Both the position numbers and the translations under genes were made by a program. From a virus, in UHGV virus genome UHGV-2036287: a DNA stretch of 37,454 bases; one strand, 5' to 3'. A model generated the notes under the pieces. It was given only the letters and a program-made list of their open reading frames with translations. It searched no databases and had not been told where the DNA came from. Numbering within the stretch: the first letter of the stretch is position 1; each line of letters starts with the position of its first letter. Positions 7,616 through 15,166 of this stretch are shown one piece after another.

Positions 7616-8527
7616 TTATGCCTCCAGCCCGTTAATCTGTGGCGTCGGCTCAGTCAGCCATGAAGGCGCTGCATTGCCTGTTGGCTCGTCCGGCAGGTCA
7701 AATGTGGAGCGCAGGCTACGCGCTGTGCTTTCCAGTTGACAGACCAGGCCTGCCATGAAGTCTCTGGGGGTATCAATCATGTTTTCAGCACAATATGCGC
7801 ACAGTGTCTCAAAAGCGCTGGACAGTCGGACGGCGATAGCAGATTCCGCCTCAACCGCTAATGCTGTCACTTCCGCCCGCAGCTTCTTAACCTCCTCATC
7901 AGGCTCAGGCGGCTGAATACGGGATTTCTTTTCCAGTCTGGTAGAGAGAGAATCAATTTTTTCATTTTTATCGGCGAGTACGCGCTGTTGTGCTGCGTTG
8001 GTTTCGCGCGCTTCGCGCAGGGCCTGGCGAAGTTCGCGTACTGACATGCGATCAACGTCGTCAAGCGTCAGGCCGGCAACAGTGCCACCATCAGCCAGTT
8101 CGGCAAGGTTTTCATCGTCTTCCGTCATTAACTCGAATAATTTGGCTTTTCCTAAAAGCGCAAACGTCTGCGCTTTTGACTCAAGTTGTGGTGATAAATA
8201 TTTTATTGATGCCTGCATCATTACCTGTGCAGTACGCTTTGACATTGATAATTCAGACTCGACAATATTTATGAAATCACCATGTGGTTCATTTTCTTTC
8301 AGTATTATCAGTCGTTTACCTGCCTCTAGCATGGCCTCAGCACTTTGTGCCATATAAAAGCGTGCTTCGTGAACAATGCGATCTCGTTCATAAGGCAGAC
8401 CATCGCCGAACTGCTGCATGATCTCCACGCGGTGTTGTGCCATGGTATTAAGACTGATGTTGAGATCATCAGACAGCGGCACCTCAGCATTCAGATCAGT
8501 GGACATTGGTGATTTGGTACGTCCCAT
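7616..8527 (-). CDS. Hypothetical early protein (coiled-coil rich)
   Basis: 303-aa ORF with strong RBS (AGGAG 7 nt upstream), ending 4 nt before the transposase start. Confidence 0.5.
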   Translation of the reverse strand: MGRTKSPMSTDLNAEVPLSDDLNISLNTMAQHRVEIMQQFGDGLPYERDRIVHEARFYMAQSAEAMLEAGKRLIILKENEPHGDFINIVESELSMSKRTAQVMMQASIKYLSPQLESKAQTFALLGKAKLFELMTEDDENLAELADGGTVAGLTLDDVDRMSVRELRQALREARETNAAQQRVLADKNEKIDSLSTRLEKKSRIQPPEPDEEVKKLRAEVTALAVEAESAIAVRLSSAFETLCAYCAENMIDTPRDFMAGLVCQLESTARSLRSTFDLPDEPTGNAAPSWLTEPTPQINGLEA

Positions 8528-8537
8528 TGATTACTCC

Positions 8538-8846
8538 TTATAAACGACTACCTGAAATGACACGTTGGTTGATTTCGTTAATACGATCCTGCGCTCGTGC
8601 CATCTCGTTACTGTGAGCCATGGCGATCTGCAGTAACTGGATGCCCGGTGCAAAACGTCCATTCTCCAGTTTCAGGGCCAGCCCTTCTTCAATGAGGGTG
8701 TTGAGTGCCCGATTAATGTTTGCTGGTGACTCGTGCAGTGCTGCCGCCAGTTCACCGTTGGAGATACCGTTCAGAGCGTGGCCACGTAACGCCTTAAGAA
8801 CACGCAAAATACGGGTACCTGCGCTTGATGTATTTGGTTTATTCAT
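8538..8846 (-). CDS. Winged-HTH DNA-binding protein (putative early regulator)
   Basis: ILRVLKALRGHALNGISNGELAAALHESPANINRALNTLIEEGL looks like an IclR/MarR-type wHTH; RBS AGGAGG; ATGA overlap with the upstream gene. Confidence 0.5.
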   Translation of the reverse strand: MNKPNTSSAGTRILRVLKALRGHALNGISNGELAAALHESPANINRALNTLIEEGLALKLENGRFAPGIQLLQIAMAHSNEMARAQDRINEINQRVISGSRL

Positions 8847-9067
8847 GACACCTCCTTAAGGATACCGGGGGTAACTTCTTTACCTATTGCAACCGATAGA
8901 TCTCGCAAAATCCGATAAGTCAAACGACCACGTGGTAGTTCACTTTTACCAGCCCAGCGACTGACTGCCTGTGTGACTGTTCGTGGCTCATAGCCTGCGT
9001 TAAGCGCGAACTGGCGCAAGCTACTGCCTCGTTCAACTAGTCGTGCCCGAACTTGTTGTTTATTCAT
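8843..9067 (-). CDS. ner: Ner-like DNA-binding regulator (Nlp/Ner family)
   Basis: 74 aa; LRQFALNAGYEPRTVTQAVSRWAGKSE parallels Mu Ner (LSRQFGYAPTTLANALERHWPKGE, from memory); first gene of the early operon, divergent from the repressor. Confidence 0.6.
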   Translation of the reverse strand: MNKQQVRARLVERGSSLRQFALNAGYEPRTVTQAVSRWAGKSELPRGRLTYRILRDLSVAIGKEVTPGILKEVS

Positions 9068-9125
9068 ATGCGGATAGTTCCAGTTGGGTTATCATGTACT
9101 CAATATGAATAAATGTACTTATTCA
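9060..9125. promoter_or_regulatory. Repressor/early-operon control region with operator-like half-sites
   Basis: Perfect inverted repeat TGAATAA-N6-TTATTCA at 9106-9125 plus another TTATTCA at 9060-9066 overlapping the ner start codon, in the 74-bp gap between divergent ner and repressor genes. Confidence 0.35.
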
Positions 9126-9155
9126 AAATAAATAAATCAAGTGGAATTACGCAAA

Positions 9156-9572
9156 ATGAATAACAAAGATGTTAACGCTGTGCTTTCCCGGTTAATGTCA
9201 CTATTCCAAGCAGAGAATGATAGTGAGTTGGCAAGAGCGCTTAACGTCAATAGGCAGACACTTGCAAGTTGGAGGAAGCGTGATTCTGTGCCTTATGCAA
9301 TTTGCATAAACATCGCAGAAGAAAAGGGGGTTTCTTTAGATTGGTTGCTAACAGGTAGAAAACAAGGTTTATCAAAAGAAGTAGACGTAACTCCGACGCA
9401 AGTGCAGTTTAGCCAAGCTGACCTTACTATGCTTGAGCTTTTAAAGCAGCTAGACCCCGAGGTTCGTAACGATCTTCTGCGAGGCGCTGCGGAAAAACAG
9501 CGAGTGATCGAGATGGAAAAACAACTGAAGGAATTATCCGCAACGATTGAGCGGTTAAAAAATGTGGGTTAA
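9156..9572 (+). CDS. CI-type phage repressor (HTH N-terminus, coiled-coil C-terminus)
   Basis: NDSELARALNVNRQTLASWRKRDSVPYAICINIAEEKGVSLDWLLTG resembles the phage CI repressor N-terminal domain; divergent from ner; no Shine-Dalgarno (possibly leaderless); the ORF could also start at GTG 9141. Confidence 0.65.
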   Translation: MNNKDVNAVLSRLMSLFQAENDSELARALNVNRQTLASWRKRDSVPYAICINIAEEKGVSLDWLLTGRKQGLSKEVDVTPTQVQFSQADLTMLELLKQLDPEVRNDLLRGAAEKQRVIEMEKQLKELSATIERLKNVG

Positions 9573-9694
9573 TCTATTCCCAATGAGAACAATTGACAAG
9601 GTTATCAAACCTCTTCGTTATATGCGCTGATTTAAACAGTAGGATGTGCTGTTTGCACTAACCATCTGAACTTTCCGCGTTAAGGATTAATCGT

Positions 9695-10588
9695 ATGAGT
9701 GGTGATGTGAGAAATTATCGTATTGAGTTTCATCAGCTATCGTTTAAGGCCACAGATCAGCTGGCAAATCTCGGAGATGCTTTTCAATCTGTAATTGATA
9801 AACAGAGCCCTTCCTCTTCAAACCATGAGGGTTTTACTAGAGAAATTTGGGGGTTGAAAAAACGCGCGGATGGTTCTTTTAGTGGAGAGTTGAGAAAATT
9901 TCGCAACTCGAACATTCCGGATAAAGGTGCACCAGGGAAACAGTCTACCCCTATTCCACTTGCCAAGGATGAAGGGATCATTGAGCGCAATTTCTTTGTA
10001 TTCTATCCTCGAATCAATGTTATAGGTTGGCACTATAATCATATGGCTTGTGGTATAAGCCGTTTTAGTGCATTTCTTTCAACTATCTTTGGTTCAAAGG
10101 TTAAGCCCGCACCTTTGCTGGAAAAAGATGCAATCGCTAGGCTTATGAGAGGAGATGTCAAAATGAAAAAAATCCAGTTGACGATTCCTCGCCCCCGTAA
10201 TCCTGAGTTTTACCCTGATACTGATTTCAGTCAAAAGACACTACAACTGCTTGGTGATGCAGGTGCCGATACAATGCAAATTGTAATGGGGATTAATACT
10301 CGCCGTGGCGATAGTGATGGTAGGCTTAAGCAGAATATAAAATTTGCTATGCAAGAGTTAGTCGAGTTTGGGGCGAAAAAGGCTGTAATTGATGTGTTCG
10401 ATGCTGATGGTGTTGTCCATCCTGTGGATTTGATTGCCGAGCGTATTTCGTCCTATCAATCGGTAGTTACTGACGCTCGTTTCCCTCCAGCCGAAACCAT
10501 GTACCGTCTAATCGATACTGCGTATGCTGAAAACCGGGAGAGTATCAATGCATATATTGGAGAAGATGAACTCGGCCCTATTGCTTAG
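9695..10588 (+). CDS. RexA-like protein (putative sensor of a Rex-type abortive-infection module)
   Basis: 297 aa soluble protein directly downstream of the repressor (lambda RexA is 279 aa); patches resembling lambda RexA from memory (FFVF...IG...FL...G, LMRG); RBS AAGGA; AT-rich relative to the backbone. Confidence 0.5.
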   Translation: MSGDVRNYRIEFHQLSFKATDQLANLGDAFQSVIDKQSPSSSNHEGFTREIWGLKKRADGSFSGELRKFRNSNIPDKGAPGKQSTPIPLAKDEGIIERNFFVFYPRINVIGWHYNHMACGISRFSAFLSTIFGSKVKPAPLLEKDAIARLMRGDVKMKKIQLTIPRPRNPEFYPDTDFSQKTLQLLGDAGADTMQIVMGINTRRGDSDGRLKQNIKFAMQELVEFGAKKAVIDVFDADGVVHPVDLIAERISSYQSVVTDARFPPAETMYRLIDTAYAENRESINAYIGEDELGPIA

Positions 10589-10985
10589 TTTATTGATTGG
10601 ATGTGGGATTGGTTTTCTCTACTGGTTCAAGTTGCCCCATATGCCAGTAGCCGCAATCCCAAACTTCATGACTACATTGTCCAGTGTCTTTGCAACGTTG
10701 TTAGGTTTTATTATTACAGCAATTGCACTACTTGCATCATTGCTTGATAAACCGTTACTTAAAAACATGCAAAAAACCGGACATTACAAGCGTCTGATGA
10801 CCGATGCATTCTACACTTGCTTAGTTTTGCTAGTGTTGGTGTTGACATGTTTGATTGGGTTGATGCTGCAAAGTAAGCATCAAGAGATTGTAGCCGCTAT
10901 CCTCATTGGGCTTGTTGTTATGTCTATGTTGTGTTTATTACAAACAGGTAGGCGATTATTCAATATAATCAAAGTGATATCATAA
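10548..10985 (+). CDS. RexB-like four-TM membrane protein (putative ion-channel effector)
   Basis: About 145 aa with four predicted TM helices (lambda RexB is 144 aa, 4 TM); TLSSVFATLLGFIITAIALLAS resembles the RexB core; start overlaps the end of the upstream gene; RBS GGGAG before ATG 10548. Confidence 0.5.
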   Translation: MHILEKMNSALLLSLLIGCGIGFLYWFKLPHMPVAAIPNFMTTLSSVFATLLGFIITAIALLASLLDKPLLKNMQKTGHYKRLMTDAFYTCLVLLVLVLTCLIGLMLQSKHQEIVAAILIGLVVMSMLCLLQTGRRLFNIIKVIS

Positions 10986-11009
10986 CAATGCACCATCAGG
11001 TGCATTGTT
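10984..11009. terminator. Hairpin between convergent genes (possible bidirectional terminator)
   Basis: AACAATGCACC-ATCA-GGTGCATTGTT, an 11-bp perfect stem with 4-nt loop between the rexB-like stop and the dam stop; no clean U-tract. Confidence 0.35.
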
Positions 11010-11037
11010 ATGCAAGACTACTTACCTCCTTCTGAGC

Positions 11038-11805
11038 CTACTCTAAATTACTTACAATAAGTTCGCGCCGTAGTGTTCCCTTTCCTGCAAGACTGTAGTT
11101 GACCTTCACACAGTGAATGTTCAGACCGTTAAAAACCTGCCGCATTTCCGGGATATCGTTGACCGATATAATCATCTTTCCTCTGATGCAACGGGCCAGC
11201 TCTGCCAACCGCGAGTAGTTCCCTTCAGGAAAATCCACACCATAGCCTTCCGTACCCAGGTACGGTGGGTCGCAGTAGAACAGCGTGTGCGGACGGTCAT
11301 AACGCTCAATGCACTGTTGCCAGTCCATGTGTTCTATCACCGTTCTGGAAAGTCGCAGGTGTGCCGCTGAGAGCTCTTCCTCAATACGCAGCAGGTTGAA
11401 GCGTGGCGGGGATGTGGTGGAGGTGCCGAAACTATGCTCTGCCACCTTGCCACCAAACGCCTGCTTCTGGAGGTAGTAGAACCGTGCCGCACGCTGGATA
11501 TCCGTCAGTGTTTCTTCCGGGGTGATCTGCAGCCATTTGTAGATCTGACGGCTGACCAGCGCCCATTTGAACTGGCGGACAAATTCTTCCAGGTGATGCT
11601 TTACCACCCGGTACAGATTCACCAGTTCACCGTTGATATCATTGATGACTTCGATCTTGCCGGGTGTCTTAAGAAAATAGAGCGCTGCTGCCCCACAAAA
11701 CGGCTCCACATAACATTCATGCGCCGGAAACAGCGGCAGAATGTGTTTTGCAAGGCGGCGTTTGCCACCAATCCACGGCACGATGGGTAATGTCTGCATT
11801 TTCAT
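11038..11805 (-). CDS. dam: DNA N6-adenine methyltransferase (Dam-like, D12 class), orphan
   Basis: PIVPWIGGKRRL and FCGAAALYF SAM-binding region and DPPY catalytic motif; no adjacent restriction enzyme; start set at MKMQ (ATG 11805). Confidence 0.8.
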   Translation of the reverse strand: MKMQTLPIVPWIGGKRRLAKHILPLFPAHECYVEPFCGAAALYFLKTPGKIEVINDINGELVNLYRVVKHHLEEFVRQFKWALVSRQIYKWLQITPEETLTDIQRAARFYYLQKQAFGGKVAEHSFGTSTTSPPRFNLLRIEEELSAAHLRLSRTVIEHMDWQQCIERYDRPHTLFYCDPPYLGTEGYGVDFPEGNYSRLAELARCIRGKMIISVNDIPEMRQVFNGLNIHCVKVNYSLAGKGTLRRELIVSNLE

Positions 11806-11909
11806 AATCTGTAAGCCTTTTACAATTATTAAAAAATATGGCAGTCTGGTCAGGTCTCGCGAGACTGACTGAACCTTGGTCGGCTCACAGCGCATTCCTG
11901 TGGGGCGAT

Positions 11910-11949
11910 GACCAGCCCGGCTTTCGGGTGCCGGGCTGGTCGTTCTTTC
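11910..11949 (+). terminator. Intrinsic-terminator-like hairpin
   Basis: GACCAGCCCGG-loop-CCGGGCTGGTC (11-bp stem) followed by GTTCTTTC on the plus strand; lies between the 71-aa ORF and dam. Confidence 0.4.
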
Positions 11950-11995
11950 ATGATGCGGCAGGGATGGCGGGATTTCTGTTAATGTGGTTTAGGGA

Positions 11996-12211
11996 TTATC
12001 CGGGGCGATTTTCTGACCTTATCCGGTCCAGGGCATAAGTAATACCTTCTGCAAAAACAGAAGTATCAAACTGCTTTTGTATTCCCTGAAAATGAAAAGC
12101 GGCACGACAGACACTCAGTTCTCCGCGGTATAACCGGATAATATCTTCCAGAACATTGTTCACTGCTTCAGCACGGCGCTGATGTTCTGTTAACGTTAAT
12201 CGGGGATTCAT
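11996..12211 (-). CDS. Hypothetical small protein (71 aa)
   Basis: Strong RBS (AAGGAG, 6-nt spacer) before the ATG; no recognisable domain. Confidence 0.45.
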   Translation of the reverse strand: MNPRLTLTEHQRRAEAVNNVLEDIIRLYRGELSVCRAAFHFQGIQKQFDTSVFAEGITYALDRIRSENRPG

Positions 12212-12614
12212 GATGCACTCCTTAAATGATGATTTTTATGTACTCACCGGCAAAATATTCTGCCGATTACTGAACACGCATCCGGCACCTCAGGTTTTGA
12301 TTTATTCTGGTTTTTTCGATATCCCGGACCAGGTTGATCACGACCAGAAAAAGTGCCGGTGTTTTATTGATACGCTGATATGGCTTCGGGATAACAGCTA
12401 TATTCGTTACTCTCAGTTGCTGGCTGTGGGAGCGGCTGATGTCGTCCTCACGGAAAAAACGCTCTGTCTGCTCAATGCCATGCCGACCTTTCTGCAGCCC
12501 CGGCCCGTACCATTTAAAGAGTCACTTCTGGATGCAGTAAAAACCGGTGAAAATGCAGTCATCGCTGAATGCGTATCCCGGATTATGCGTTACGTGTTTA
12601 ATGAACGTAAGTGA
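12210..12614 (+). CDS. Hypothetical protein (134 aa)
   Basis: Only long ORF in a 380-bp stretch with no minus-strand ORF; weak RBS, and its start codon overlaps the divergent 71-aa gene's start, so the call is tentative. Confidence 0.35.
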   Translation: MMHSLNDDFYVLTGKIFCRLLNTHPAPQVLIYSGFFDIPDQVDHDQKKCRCFIDTLIWLRDNSYIRYSQLLAVGAADVVLTEKTLCLLNAMPTFLQPRPVPFKESLLDAVKTGENAVIAECVSRIMRYVFNERK

Positions 12615-13308
12615 GGTTTATCCGCTGTCTGCATAATCCCGATAGCCAGTGCGAGGGGAAGTAATTCCGGGGAAACTCTTTCAAACAGCGATGCCCATTC
12701 TCCTCTCGCCATCACTCTGTCCAGCCCGCCCCCCAACTGCATTTCAGCAATCTTCCTGATTTCCCGGAACAACGCCGCTTTGATCTCTTCATGCTCAGCT
12801 TTATTTTCCGGTGTCAGAAGGTATTCGTCGAAGAACCGGGGAGGCTGGTTAATCGGGATGTGTTCCTGTTTGCCNNNNNNNNNNNNNNNNNNNNNNNNNN
12901 NNNNNGTTTACGTAACTCCTTCATGAGCAGCTCCTGATCGTAAACTGTCATCAGTGCCGCAATGGTGGCATGCTGTGCATCGGGCAGTATCCAGGGTTGC
13001 CGGCCCGTGGGGCATATAACATCCAGCAGCTCATTCGTCCGACAGATACGCTCCTCGCCGTATGACAACAGGCCCTGTCCCGTGTATTCCTCCAGCCTGA
13101 TCACTGTGCCACCCCGTGGCTTCTGCCAGGTCGTCAGATCTTCGCCATTCATACGGCGCTCATTCTCCACGTCAGCAGCATCGACAATGACGCTGTTTCC
13201 GAGTTCCTGTTTCACCATCTCTTCTATCCGCGCCAGTACGTAACTTTTACCGCTGCCCACAGGACCGGACACAGTGACAGTGATGACCGGATTCAGTGTG
13301 TGCGTCAT
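12590..13308 (-). CDS. P-loop NTPase (kinase-like), function unknown; interrupted by an assembly gap
   Basis: Walker A GPVGSGKS at residues 15-22; the reading frame is open on both sides of the N-run (12875-12905), so the two pieces probably form one protein of about 240 aa; exact frame across the gap is unverifiable. Confidence 0.5.
12875..12905. other. Assembly gap (31 N)
   Basis: Run of 31 N characters in the sequence. Confidence 1.
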
Positions 13309-13438
13309 ATCGTATTCTCCTCTGTGAATAATTCATCGTTTATCCTGCACATCCCGTATCCCCGGCTCTCTTAACGCGCTTTAAAATCCTTTGCGCCCTG
13401 TATTTGTGATGCTGTCTCCACCAAACGAGGAGACACAC

Positions 13439-13789
13439 ATGAAAAACCTGAAAAAATTCATTCCCCCTGTTAAAAAACCTCGCCTCAGCGGCTGGCTGCT
13501 GACCTCAGTGCTGTTGCTGGGCACCATCGCTCTGGTCTCACCACAGCAGCTGCCTGTTGTGATCTACAAGCTGGCACTCATCACGCTGGCAGCAGTGCTG
13601 GGTTACTGGCTTGACCGTTCGCTCTTCCCCAAAGCCCGTCCCGGTCAGTACCTGAAACATGACGACAGGCTGATGGCTGAAGGGCGTTTCCCGGTACAGA
13701 CCGGCCTTCACCTGGTGTTTTCTGCTGCGTTAATCCGCCGTGCACTGATTGTTGCAGCGGTCTGCCTGGCTGTTGCGATGGGGCTTTAA
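13439..13789 (+). CDS. Putative holin / small membrane protein (first gene of lysis cassette)
   Basis: 117 aa with 2-3 hydrophobic helices; RBS GAGGAG; immediately upstream of the endolysin. Confidence 0.45.
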   Translation: MKNLKKFIPPVKKPRLSGWLLTSVLLLGTIALVSPQQLPVVIYKLALITLAAVLGYWLDRSLFPKARPGQYLKHDDRLMAEGRFPVQTGLHLVFSAALIRRALIVAAVCLAVAMGL

Positions 13790-13791
13790 TC

Positions 13792-14532
13792 ATGAACTGG
13801 CCGCAGATCACCTGGATTGTATGCATGTCCCTGAAACTGGCTTTCGAAGCCTTTCGGGTCTTCATCAGAACCGAACGCCTGTCAGTCCGCGCCGGGACCT
13901 TTCTGGTTCATATGGCATGGGTATTCTTTGTCGCAATGTTGCTCTGGTGTGGCGGCTTTTTCAGCCAGGCATGCGCAGCACAACCTCCGCAGGCTGCGCT
14001 GCAGTATCGCGATGATGTGATCCGTAATGCCCGGCTTGAATGGGGACTGTCTGCGCCGGTGGCCGATTTCGCCGCGCAACTGCATCAGGAAAGCGGCTGG
14101 CGACCTGATGCGATCTCGCCGGCTGGCGCTCAGGGACTGGCGCAGTTCATGCCTGCCACTGCCGACTGGATAAGCCAGTTGATACCGATGCTGAGCAGTC
14201 GTGAGCCGTTTAATCCGGCATGGGCTATCCGGGCGCTGGTCAGCTATGACCGCTGGCTGTGGCAGCGTGTCAGCGCCGCCAGTGACTGCGAGCGTATGGC
14301 CATGACACTGTCGGGCTATAACGGTGGTCTGGGCTGGGTACAACGGGACAGGCGGCTTGCATCACAGAAAGGTCTGGACAGCACCCGCTGGTTCGGACAT
14401 GTCGCCACGGTGAATGCCGGACGCAATGCGGCCAGCTGGCGGGAGAACCGCCATTATCCGCAGCGCATCCTGCGCGAACTGGCACCGCGATATCTCACAT
14501 GGGGAGGCAGCAGTTGTGTGGCATCTGGTTAA
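13792..14532 (+). CDS. Endolysin, soluble lytic transglycosylase (SLT) domain, possibly with signal/SAR-type N-terminus
   Basis: SLT active-site region LHQESGWRPDAISPAGAQGLAQFMP; hydrophobic stretch MAWVFFVAMLLWCGGFF near the N-terminus; the true start may be the internal Met near 13912. Confidence 0.75.
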   Translation: MNWPQITWIVCMSLKLAFEAFRVFIRTERLSVRAGTFLVHMAWVFFVAMLLWCGGFFSQACAAQPPQAALQYRDDVIRNARLEWGLSAPVADFAAQLHQESGWRPDAISPAGAQGLAQFMPATADWISQLIPMLSSREPFNPAWAIRALVSYDRWLWQRVSAASDCERMAMTLSGYNGGLGWVQRDRRLASQKGLDSTRWFGHVATVNAGRNAASWRENRHYPQRILRELAPRYLTWGGSSCVASG

Positions 14533-15166
14533 AAAGCTGCCGTGGCGCGGCATTCTGCTGGCCATTCTTATCAATGCCTTTCTGGTCGGCCTGTATGCCA
14601 TGGGATACAGAAGTGGTCATGACTCTGCAAAGCGTGACGGTGATACCGCGCTCAGTCAGTTGCAGTCAGCATTTGACGCGTACAAAACGGAGCAGGCAAC
14701 GCTTGAGAATGCTGCGCTGCGGGCCTGGGCCAGACGGTATCAGGAGCAGGTGGCCGCCGGGCAGCGGGCTGAAGCCGGTTATCTTGAGCAGATTGCTCAA
14801 CTGGAGAGCCGGAATAAACAACTACAGGGGCAAATTAACGATGTCACACAGCGCTGGATTGATGAAAAAGGTAAGAGCCATCCCATTGAGTGCGTGTTTA
14901 CTCGCGGTTTCGTGCGCCAGTACAACGCCGCACTCGGATATGACAACGCATCCGTCGACACCGGTCATTCAGACTCAGTTGCCGCCGCTGGCACCCGCTC
15001 TGGCACAGCGACCGGGCAACCTGAAACCGCTGACGCCCGGTTACGCAATTCGGGTGTCTCCCAGCTTGACGTCCTTGCCAACATCATCGACAACGCAGGG
15101 CAATGTCGTCGCTGGCGAAACCAGATAAACGCGCTACTGGATGAACGGGAAGGATTACAGAAATGA
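14516..15166 (+). CDS. Putative i-spanin (Rz-like; N-terminal TM plus periplasmic coiled coil)
   Basis: GTG start after GGAGG; TM segment ILLAILINAFLVGLYAMGY followed by a Gln/Ala-rich coiled coil; follows the endolysin. Confidence 0.5.
   Translation: MWHLVKKLPWRGILLAILINAFLVGLYAMGYRSGHDSAKRDGDTALSQLQSAFDAYKTEQATLENAALRAWARRYQEQVAAGQRAEAGYLEQIAQLESRNKQLQGQINDVTQRWIDEKGKSHPIECVFTRGFVRQYNAALGYDNASVDTGHSDSVAAAGTRSGTATGQPETADARLRNSGVSQLDVLANIIDNAGQCRRWRNQINALLDEREGLQK
14862..15128 (+). CDS. Putative o-spanin (Rz1-like proline-rich lipoprotein) embedded in the +1 frame of the i-spanin gene
   Basis: MKKVRAIPLSACLLAVSC lipoprotein-type signal with candidate lipobox Cys, then a proline-rich mature region (PSTPVIQTQLPPLAPALAQRPGNLKPLTPG); lies wholly inside 14516..15166 in another frame. 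Confidence 0.45.
   Translation: MKKVRAIPLSACLLAVSCASTTPHSDMTTHPSTPVIQTQLPPLAPALAQRPGNLKPLTPGYAIRVSPSLTSLPTSSTTQGNVVAGETR

Follow-up and report, generated by a model that had tools for sequence, protein, structure and literature searches.

A mosaic of two separable accessory units, an orphan adenine methylase and a gene trio with a predicted winged-helix regulator, in a variable slot of a BcepMu-like prophage

The temperate phages P2 and 186 each keep a repressor gene and a small-protein gene in divergent orientation, C with Cox and CI with Apl, and the transcripts overlap at their 5′ ends. In the transposable phage Fc02 (Beetrevirus), a 7.9-kDa immunity-proximal protein from antisense-overlapping genes (olg1, olg2 and gene 10) excludes superinfecting phages (PMC9936078). 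The transposable phages also have DNA modification enzymes, presumably against restriction, such as Mom of Mu and Hia5, Hin1523 and Nme1821, and in Mu-like prophages the part of Mom is taken by N6-methyladenine (m6A) methyltransferases (Drozdz et al. 2012, PMC3299994). Here, we compare with these systems a block of four genes in the UHGV virus genome UHGV-2036287, whose whole stretch of 37,454 nucleotides (nt) is called the window. The block lies between immunity and lysis genes and consists of the methylase gene dam and a trio encoding proteins of 71, 134 and 242 amino acids (aa), the first two of which form a head-to-head pair.

We tentatively read this block as a mosaic in which a hypervariable slot holds two separable accessory units, one being a methylase for self-protection in lytic growth and the other a switch of a repressor and a small gene, a reading that is plausible rather than probable. 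By its sequence, the window is a BcepMu-like transposable prophage of E. coli. Many E. coli chromosomes, NZ_CP032261 among them, hold prophages with 100% identity to its region, and Escherichia phage PhiKM (Bcepmuvirus) is 97% identical to it. The four-gene block was found in 626 of 5,426 complete E. coli genomes. All four open reading frames (ORFs) are real, each matching a PHROG family with E-values of 1e-44 to 1e-100.

The slot between the immunity and lysis genes is a true cargo hotspot. A 6.1-kb query from the repressor to the endolysin (8500-14600) was searched in E. coli genomes and found 636 genomes of this prophage type, of which 23 carry the full arrangement and about 500 share the dam-to-holin part only. 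A preliminary description of the window, made from the letters without database searches, had taken the block for accessory cargo at a hotspot and not for conserved core genes, and had called for a comparison with related prophages. The comparison agrees with it, as the block position is variable and the slots of the relatives hold dam alone, the trio without dam, a Walker-A fragment alone or unrelated genes.

Specifically, strain SF-173 has of the block only a 158-aa Walker-A fragment, beside the repressor and two unrelated genes, and strain 8178 lacks all four block genes and carries a DUF2441 gene. The gene dam occurs by itself beside the holin gene both in enterotoxigenic E. coli (ETEC) L4_E1441, following the repressor, a nucleoid-associated protein and a 401-aa protein, and in Klebsiella phage KP12, together with an unrelated 188-aa gene. 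BcepMu itself has gp18-gp20 in the slot and none of the four. In a more distant BcepMu-like prophage (L078), the trio adjoins the holin gene with no dam. A metagenomic relative (L016), likewise beside the holin gene, combines dam and the pair with a third protein reduced to its C-domain.

Since relatives carry them separately, dam and the trio are independent units. They separate so freely that the single cluster first envisaged for the four genes is not supported. In some copies of the sequence type 131 (ST131) kind, the cargo region has received an IS66-family (ISEc23) insertion, as seen in H90 (NZ_CP174453) and H95 (NZ_AP029163).

The 134-aa protein yields a high-confidence winged-helix model with MarR-type structural neighbours, so its fold is a winged helix-turn-helix (HTH). 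It differs from the MarR/PadR/Rrf2-type regulators by an N-terminal FN..G.IF..LY..FP.P helix, two C-terminal helices and, in the model, a loop at their canonical second helix. Profile matches over the helix-wing region are weak (YjcQ, AspA, Fur and MarR). No Pfam or NCBIfam match was found for the protein or for 107 relatives, and Foldseek of the model against BFVD gave nothing at E≤0.001.

This winged-helix family amounts to 195 clusters at 50% identity without curated annotation. A Serratia homolog of 53% identity bears a 'DUF2513' label, which was not reproduced by Pfam and on which no informative literature was found. RefSeq annotates the 134-aa gene, and the PhiKM record (L002 7131-7535) omits it though the product is 100% identical.

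The minus-strand array has the winged-helix gene as an antisense island between its 242-aa and 71-aa genes. The 3′ ends of the winged-helix and 242-aa genes overlap by 25 nt, and the former gene is antisense to any Walker-A read-through into the 71-aa gene. The earlier description of a block opposing the late genes as a whole is therefore not supported; dam and the 71-aa and 242-aa genes do oppose them, whereas the 134-aa ORF shares their plus strand. The distant family members are likewise lone genes flanked by opposite-strand genes, with normal intergenic spacers.

The two start codons of the pair overlap within a CATG. We checked 64 loci, comprising BcepMu-like and P2-like ones, three GTDB genomes and L078, and the winged-helix ATG overlaps a divergent 63-86-aa ORF in this manner at all 64; one further relative has a 4-nt gap in place of the overlap. 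The geometry persists even though identity among the winged-helix proteins is only about 30%. Such a geometry of a regulator and a small gene appears not to have been described previously.

Homologs of the 71-aa protein (69-90 aa) take the same position in L016, L078 and L076. All small partners fall into two families, the Mu type of 69-90 aa with AE...AEGLT.AL and the P2 type of 63-64 aa with NNDLSSRE. A profile-profile comparison of the two types gave a probability of 0.1%, and homology is not detectable between them.

Selection was assessed from the ratio of nonsynonymous to synonymous substitution rates (dN/dS). The P2-type small ORF has dN/dS of 0.13-0.19 in its own frame, against 0.29 in one of the five other frames and values above 1 in the remaining four, and the P2-type winged-helix genes have about 0.09-0.10. 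Both short ORFs of the pair are conserved and the P2-type small one is under frame-specific purifying selection, which rules out that either is spurious. The 71-aa ORF has the strong ribosome-binding site (RBS) noticed before, AAGGAG at 6 nt ahead of the ATG.

The overlapping start codons have two consequences for expression. The RBS of each gene and any proximal promoter must lie inside the coding sequence of its partner, and the 5′ ends of the two mRNAs must be antisense to each other. The pair would thus share the divergent geometry with P2 C/Cox and 186 CI/Apl, in temperate phages that include P2-like ones. Unlike in those systems, the start codons themselves overlap, the regulator has a winged helix and not a classical HTH repressor fold, and the site is a cargo region and not the immunity locus; no sequence relationship was found.

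The Fc02 genes (PMC9936078) resemble the pair in being small, antisense and immunity-proximal in a transposable phage, and in the opposite-phase expression that we propose here. However, their overlaps are extensive while the pair overlaps only in its start codons and, briefly, at a 3′ end, and we assume no homology.

The P2-like phages Klebsiella ST147-VIM1phi7.1, Midge and FSL SP-004 have winged-helix homologs of about 31% identity. Their place is the interval from gpA to the portal gene gpQ, with reverse transcriptase or Fic cargo as neighbours, and the gpA-gpQ locus of P2-like phages is a defence hotspot (Rousset et al., PMC9122126). In the P2-like loci L073/L074 (4066-5302) and L005 (1068-2108), family members were seen beside reverse transcriptase plus HTH cargo and Fic. 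Another on a metagenomic contig (L079 2596-3357) lies near a metallo-beta-lactamase-fold gene that is Apyc1-like (anti-Pycsar).

The 242-aa gene appears in the window as two out-of-frame pieces, because a run of N at 12875-12905 does not preserve length, with 31 N replacing 41 bases (tcaccggtcagccaacagaatgttgttcgtctccgaagtac in NZ_CP032261). The bases of this 100%-identical chromosome restore a single 242-aa ORF, so the Walker-A protein of roughly 240 aa that had been expected is indeed encoded intact. Of the 242 positions of the phrog_3787 profile, its N-terminal half matches 1-134 at 1e-90 and its C-terminal half 149-242 at 5e-58.

Every variant, and likewise the L078 homolog, keeps the Walker A motif GPVGSGKS, and a VIVD/CIIE strand lies 20 residues past its Lys. 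The L078 homolog has 258 aa, of which the first 74 are 54% identical to the 242-aa protein, including GPTGSGKS, and it ends in a similar C-terminal motif after an unrelated middle. The E. coli variants have either 182 aa without the middle (residues 53-124) or 141-158 aa without the C-domain, the latter annotated 'ABC transporter ATPase', and L016 has a 102-aa ORF that consists of the C-domain alone. As variants and homologs drop or swap the middle and the C-domain, the protein is modular.

The matches of the Walker-A protein in Pfam, NCBIfam and PDB are all sub-threshold and confined to beta1-P-loop-alpha1. The N-domain profile matched only the generic P-loop of ABC ATPases, and PADLOC gave only P-loop noise at E≥0.009. 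The AlphaFold2 model is poor, with a predicted local distance difference test (pLDDT) score of 42.7 from a shallow alignment. No relatives were found in the GTDB species representatives, and among phage records PhiKM alone has one. A Walker-A strand-loop-helix is all that can be recognised in the protein, which makes it a putative NTPase.

Profile searches of the three trio proteins in Pfam, NCBIfam, PADLOC and PDB sequences gave nothing usable. PADLOC-DB 2.0, which covers systems described up to 2023, has no match for the 71-aa or 134-aa protein. The defence, anti-defence or toxin-antitoxin role that had been suggested for the trio found no match in these searches.

The dam product matches PF02086 with an E-value of 8e-30 and 104.8 bits (cut-off 22), phrog_56 with 1e-99 and PADLOC MTase_II with 1e-112, and it is only just over the cut-off of TIGR00571 (116.5 bits against 114.85). 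Its best PDB matches are DpnM (1e-17) and EcoDam (2.5e-16). The catalytic motif IV is present as YCDPPYLG (DPPY). The S-adenosylmethionine (AdoMet) motif I is EPFCGAAA, that is FxGxA, with the last Gly of FxGxG replaced by Ala.

The neighbours of dam have no nuclease domains. Because no restriction enzyme gene was found adjoining, the label of an orphan D12 adenine methyltransferase given in the preliminary description holds. An in-frame upstream ATG at 11895 would make the product 285 aa, and the PhiKM record annotates this longer start.

The nearest phage relatives, with 63-67% identity over the full length, are B3 ORF48, Burkholderia phiE125 gp27 and the methylases of phi1026b, KS9 and Vibrio VP882. 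Like dam, the methylases of the B3 ORF48, phiE125 gp27 and VP882 type have DPPY, are orphans and belong to temperate or transposable phages. By these matches, dam is an ordinary phage methylase of a known kind, the B3 ORF48/phiE125 gp27 type that is widespread in temperate phages.

In the transposable Pseudomonas phage B3, the methylase gene comes directly after a Com-like translational regulator in the late region. In the Mu com-mom module, the gene of a small Cys4 zinc-finger translational activator directly precedes and overlaps the modification gene. In contrast, dam lies between immunity and lysis genes and no Com-like zinc-finger gene was found upstream, where the 71-aa protein has one Cys and 190 nt that include a hairpin intervene. 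Moreover, Mom is not homologous to the dam product and differs also in genome position.

The B3 gene order fits the idea that Mom-less Mu-like phages protect themselves with an adenine methyltransferase (PMC3299994), and B3 ORF48 is outside the 1000 nearest sequences to the non-specific enzyme Hia5 (PMC3299994). Two other methylases were considered. M.EcoGIX is plasmid-borne and so irrelevant, and an identity of M.EcoMIV of the ST131 strain EC958, which is reported to be transcriptionally silent (PMC4659465), with the prophage dam was not confirmed.

GATC is scarce across the window, with 98 seen against 181 expected from a second-order Markov model (ratio 0.54), while the CATG, GTAC and GCGC counts are near 1 of expectation. 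This scarcity is odd in a phage encoding a Dam-family enzyme. No GATC clusters were found at the candidate regulatory sites.

The features of the block and its borders are collected in Table 1.

Table 1. Features of the four-gene block and its flanks (positions in the window)
Feature	Position	Strand	Basis or remark
Perfect 14-bp hairpin CATAACAATGCACC-ATCA-GGTGCATTGTTATG	10981..11012	.	Convergent junction, 153-aa gene stop / dam 3′ end
dam, D12-class Dam-family N6-adenine DNA methyltransferase, 255 aa	11038..11805	-	Profile matches
Sigma-70-like promoter candidate for dam, CTGACC-17 nt-AATAAT	11825..11853	-	Consensus scans only
GC-rich hairpin, 12-bp stem, between 71-aa stop and dam	11914..11945	.	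Folding energy
71-aa soluble protein, phrog_4490 (E=7e-53)	11996..12211	-	Head-to-head partner of winged-helix gene
CATG, divergent start codons overlapping by 2 nt	12209..12212	.	Read from sequence
134-aa winged-helix protein, phrog_2266 (E=3e-44), predicted DNA-binding regulator	12210..12614	+	Profile and model
18-bp near-perfect palindrome CGGCAAAATATTCTGCCG, candidate operator	12248..12265	.	Inside winged-helix gene
242-aa modular protein, phrog_3787	12590..13308	-	N-terminal Walker-A mini-domain, variable middle, conserved helical C-domain
130-bp divergent intergenic region, 242-aa gene / holin gene	13309..13438	.	Sequence

We propose that the methylase most likely modifies replicating phage DNA in lytic growth, and that the modified progeny genomes would be protected from restriction, in analogy to what Mom does in Mu. 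The winged-helix protein would be a repressor made in the lysogen, and its DNA binding and the convergent transcription would together silence the small gene and the Walker-A read-through. The lytic programme would override the repressor, and the minus-strand genes would then be expressed. Such a switch would be a face-to-face toggle in the manner of P2 C/Cox and 186 CI/Apl.

We infer the DNA binding by the winged-helix protein, the repression and the timing of expression, and likewise the roles of the small and Walker-A proteins. The repressor model is favoured because of the fold, the habit of being a lone antisense gene, the array without a sigma-70-like promoter and the 18-bp palindrome, which lies 37-54 nt upstream of the 71-aa ATG.

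Several observations weigh against the mosaic of a self-protection methylase and a repressor switch. The winged-helix gene is disrupted in 3 of 13 Mu-type viral contigs. Natural variants are L058 (4001-4102) and L059 (4001-4102), where a deletion of about 300 bp leaves 33 aa of it, and L014 (3393-3515), where it stops at codon 40, and these variants have the 71-aa and Walker-A genes intact. The module of the winged-helix and small genes may therefore be dispensable or decaying. In the E. coli pair, the dN/dS values of 0.49 and 0.68 would mean weak constraint, with too few substitutions to judge.

The candidate signals of the switch also count on this side. The palindrome is partly conserved in L016 and absent from L078 and the P2-type loci, and palindrome scans found no operator common to the subfamilies. 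Consensus scans found no good sigma-70 match for the minus-strand array in the intergenic region ahead of it, and around the CATG, promoter scans of seven loci yielded no sigma-70 site that was strong or kept its position.

As to the methylase half, the dam product scores 71.5 bits on the EcoDam equivalog NF008152, whose cut-off is 441. The EcoDam residues R124, N120, L122 and P134, which we take to be its GATC contacts, correspond by HMMER to A, G, K and S in the dam product, with the loop alignment uncertain. GATC specificity is thus not to be assumed, since the score is far below the equivalog cut-off and the contact residues are unmatched.

The pair may do more than regulate its own neighbours. 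It could be an undescribed mobile genetic toggle with two exclusive expression states, set by the repressor together with the mutually antisense 5′ ends, that moves between unrelated temperate phages, a bolder idea that we hold as doubtful. Its carriers would be the BcepMu-like, P2-like and other phages, in which it would gate cargo such as the Walker-A gene or encode exclusion or counter-defence via interchangeable small effectors.

Alternatively, the trio or the pair alone would be an undescribed anti-phage system for superinfection exclusion or abortive infection, with the winged-helix protein as a regulator or sensor and the others as effectors. The hotspot character of the slot suits this, as does the P2-type pair in the gpA-gpQ defence hotspot beside reverse-transcriptase and Fic cargo (PMC9122126), and Fc02 sets a precedent in a transposable phage (PMC9936078). 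However, PADLOC 2.0 matches none of the three proteins, which have no nuclease, membrane or NAD-related domains, and the loss of the winged-helix gene is tolerated. The P2-like pair sits beside other cargo, so it could equally be a flanking regulator, and we consider the anti-phage role unlikely yet credible. A counter-defence or host-takeover role alongside the methylase, for instance the inhibition of host restriction or immunity, is improbable in our judgement. In most E. coli copies, the trio indeed has the orientation of dam and directly precedes it, its array without a sigma-70-like promoter is compatible with activator-dependent middle or late expression, and a distant family member is near the Apyc1-like anti-Pycsar gene. 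But dam and the trio occur independently, no methylase is near the P2-type pair, and the proteins are neither acidic DNA mimics nor like any known inhibitor.

A small protein and a predicted DNA-binding partner in a two-gene module that is mobile between unrelated phage types also recall a toxin-antitoxin or addiction pair stabilising the prophage, and the P-loop region has a weak Zeta_toxin match (E=0.068). We think this very unlikely, as the genes are divergent and not co-transcribed, no toxin-antitoxin families are matched and the small partner differs by phage type with no detectable homology. Additionally, L058, L059 and L014 lose the winged-helix gene and keep the small one, and L073 does the reverse, with the small gene shortened and the winged-helix gene intact, although this is genomic evidence and weak. 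Least credible of all is that the four genes make one methylase-based system, an atypical restriction-modification or epigenetic defence with the Walker-A protein as the effector. Their adjacency in most E. coli copies and weak P-loop matches to BrxC/BrxD and HerA would speak for it. Nevertheless, it is already largely refuted by the segregation of the parts as dam alone, the trio alone and the Walker-A fragment alone; a strong hairpin and a separate promoter-like site stand between the trio and dam, and the P-loop matches are limited to the Walker-A motif.

The borders of the two units carry further candidate signals. The hairpin at the convergent junction is a candidate bidirectional terminator by its sequence. 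The -10 element of the dam promoter candidate ends 20 nt ahead of the ATG. The hairpin between the 71-aa stop and dam folds with -28.7 kcal/mol on the minus strand and -36.2 kcal/mol on the plus strand (z-scores of -5.25 and -4.18, respectively), and it has a U-rich tail on the plus strand only.

Within 11799-11955, a plus-strand promoter-like TTTTCA-16-TACAAT, with its -10 ending at 11826, faces this hairpin. The two could delimit a small plus-strand RNA, about 120 nt long, whose promoter would stand back-to-back with that of dam; this is pure speculation. No Rfam match was found in 10800-13600.

Upstream of the slot on the minus strand are the Mu-type early genes for the transposase, an ExeA-like B protein and Ner/IclR-like regulators. 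The cI-like repressor gene (9141-9572, plus strand) is followed by two plus-strand genes, and downstream on the plus strand are the holin gene (starting at 13439), an SLT endolysin, spanins and the late genes. The two genes behind the repressor (window 9141-10985) encode a 297-aa protein and a 153-aa multi-pass membrane protein on the same strand, a layout resembling lambda cI-rexA-rexB. RexA/RexB, Pfam and PADLOC matches were looked for in this post-repressor pair and none was found.

The gene pair behind the repressor differs with each immunity type of the prophage (L070, L071, L072 and L061). The alternatives elsewhere are proteins of 328 and 193/203 aa, a nucleoid-associated protein with a 401-aa protein, and a 177-aa protein. 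The post-repressor genes may be a second reservoir of exclusion genes.

About 11% of complete E. coli genomes contain this prophage type, and its hotspot is a practical place to seek exclusion genes, all the more useful as each immunity type has a different gene pair behind its repressor. The separable methylase and the conserved trio tell experimenters what to clone together, and the natural winged-helix variants L058, L059 and L014 could be used directly as knock-outs. What the trio offers is a precise hypothesis on regulation that can be tested with little effort, rather than a demonstrated new system. That start codons overlap in the same way in proteins about 70% diverged and in two unrelated phage groups implies a regulatory constraint. 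The control of prophage defence genes would also be concerned, should the pair indeed gate cargo within the defence hotspot of P2.

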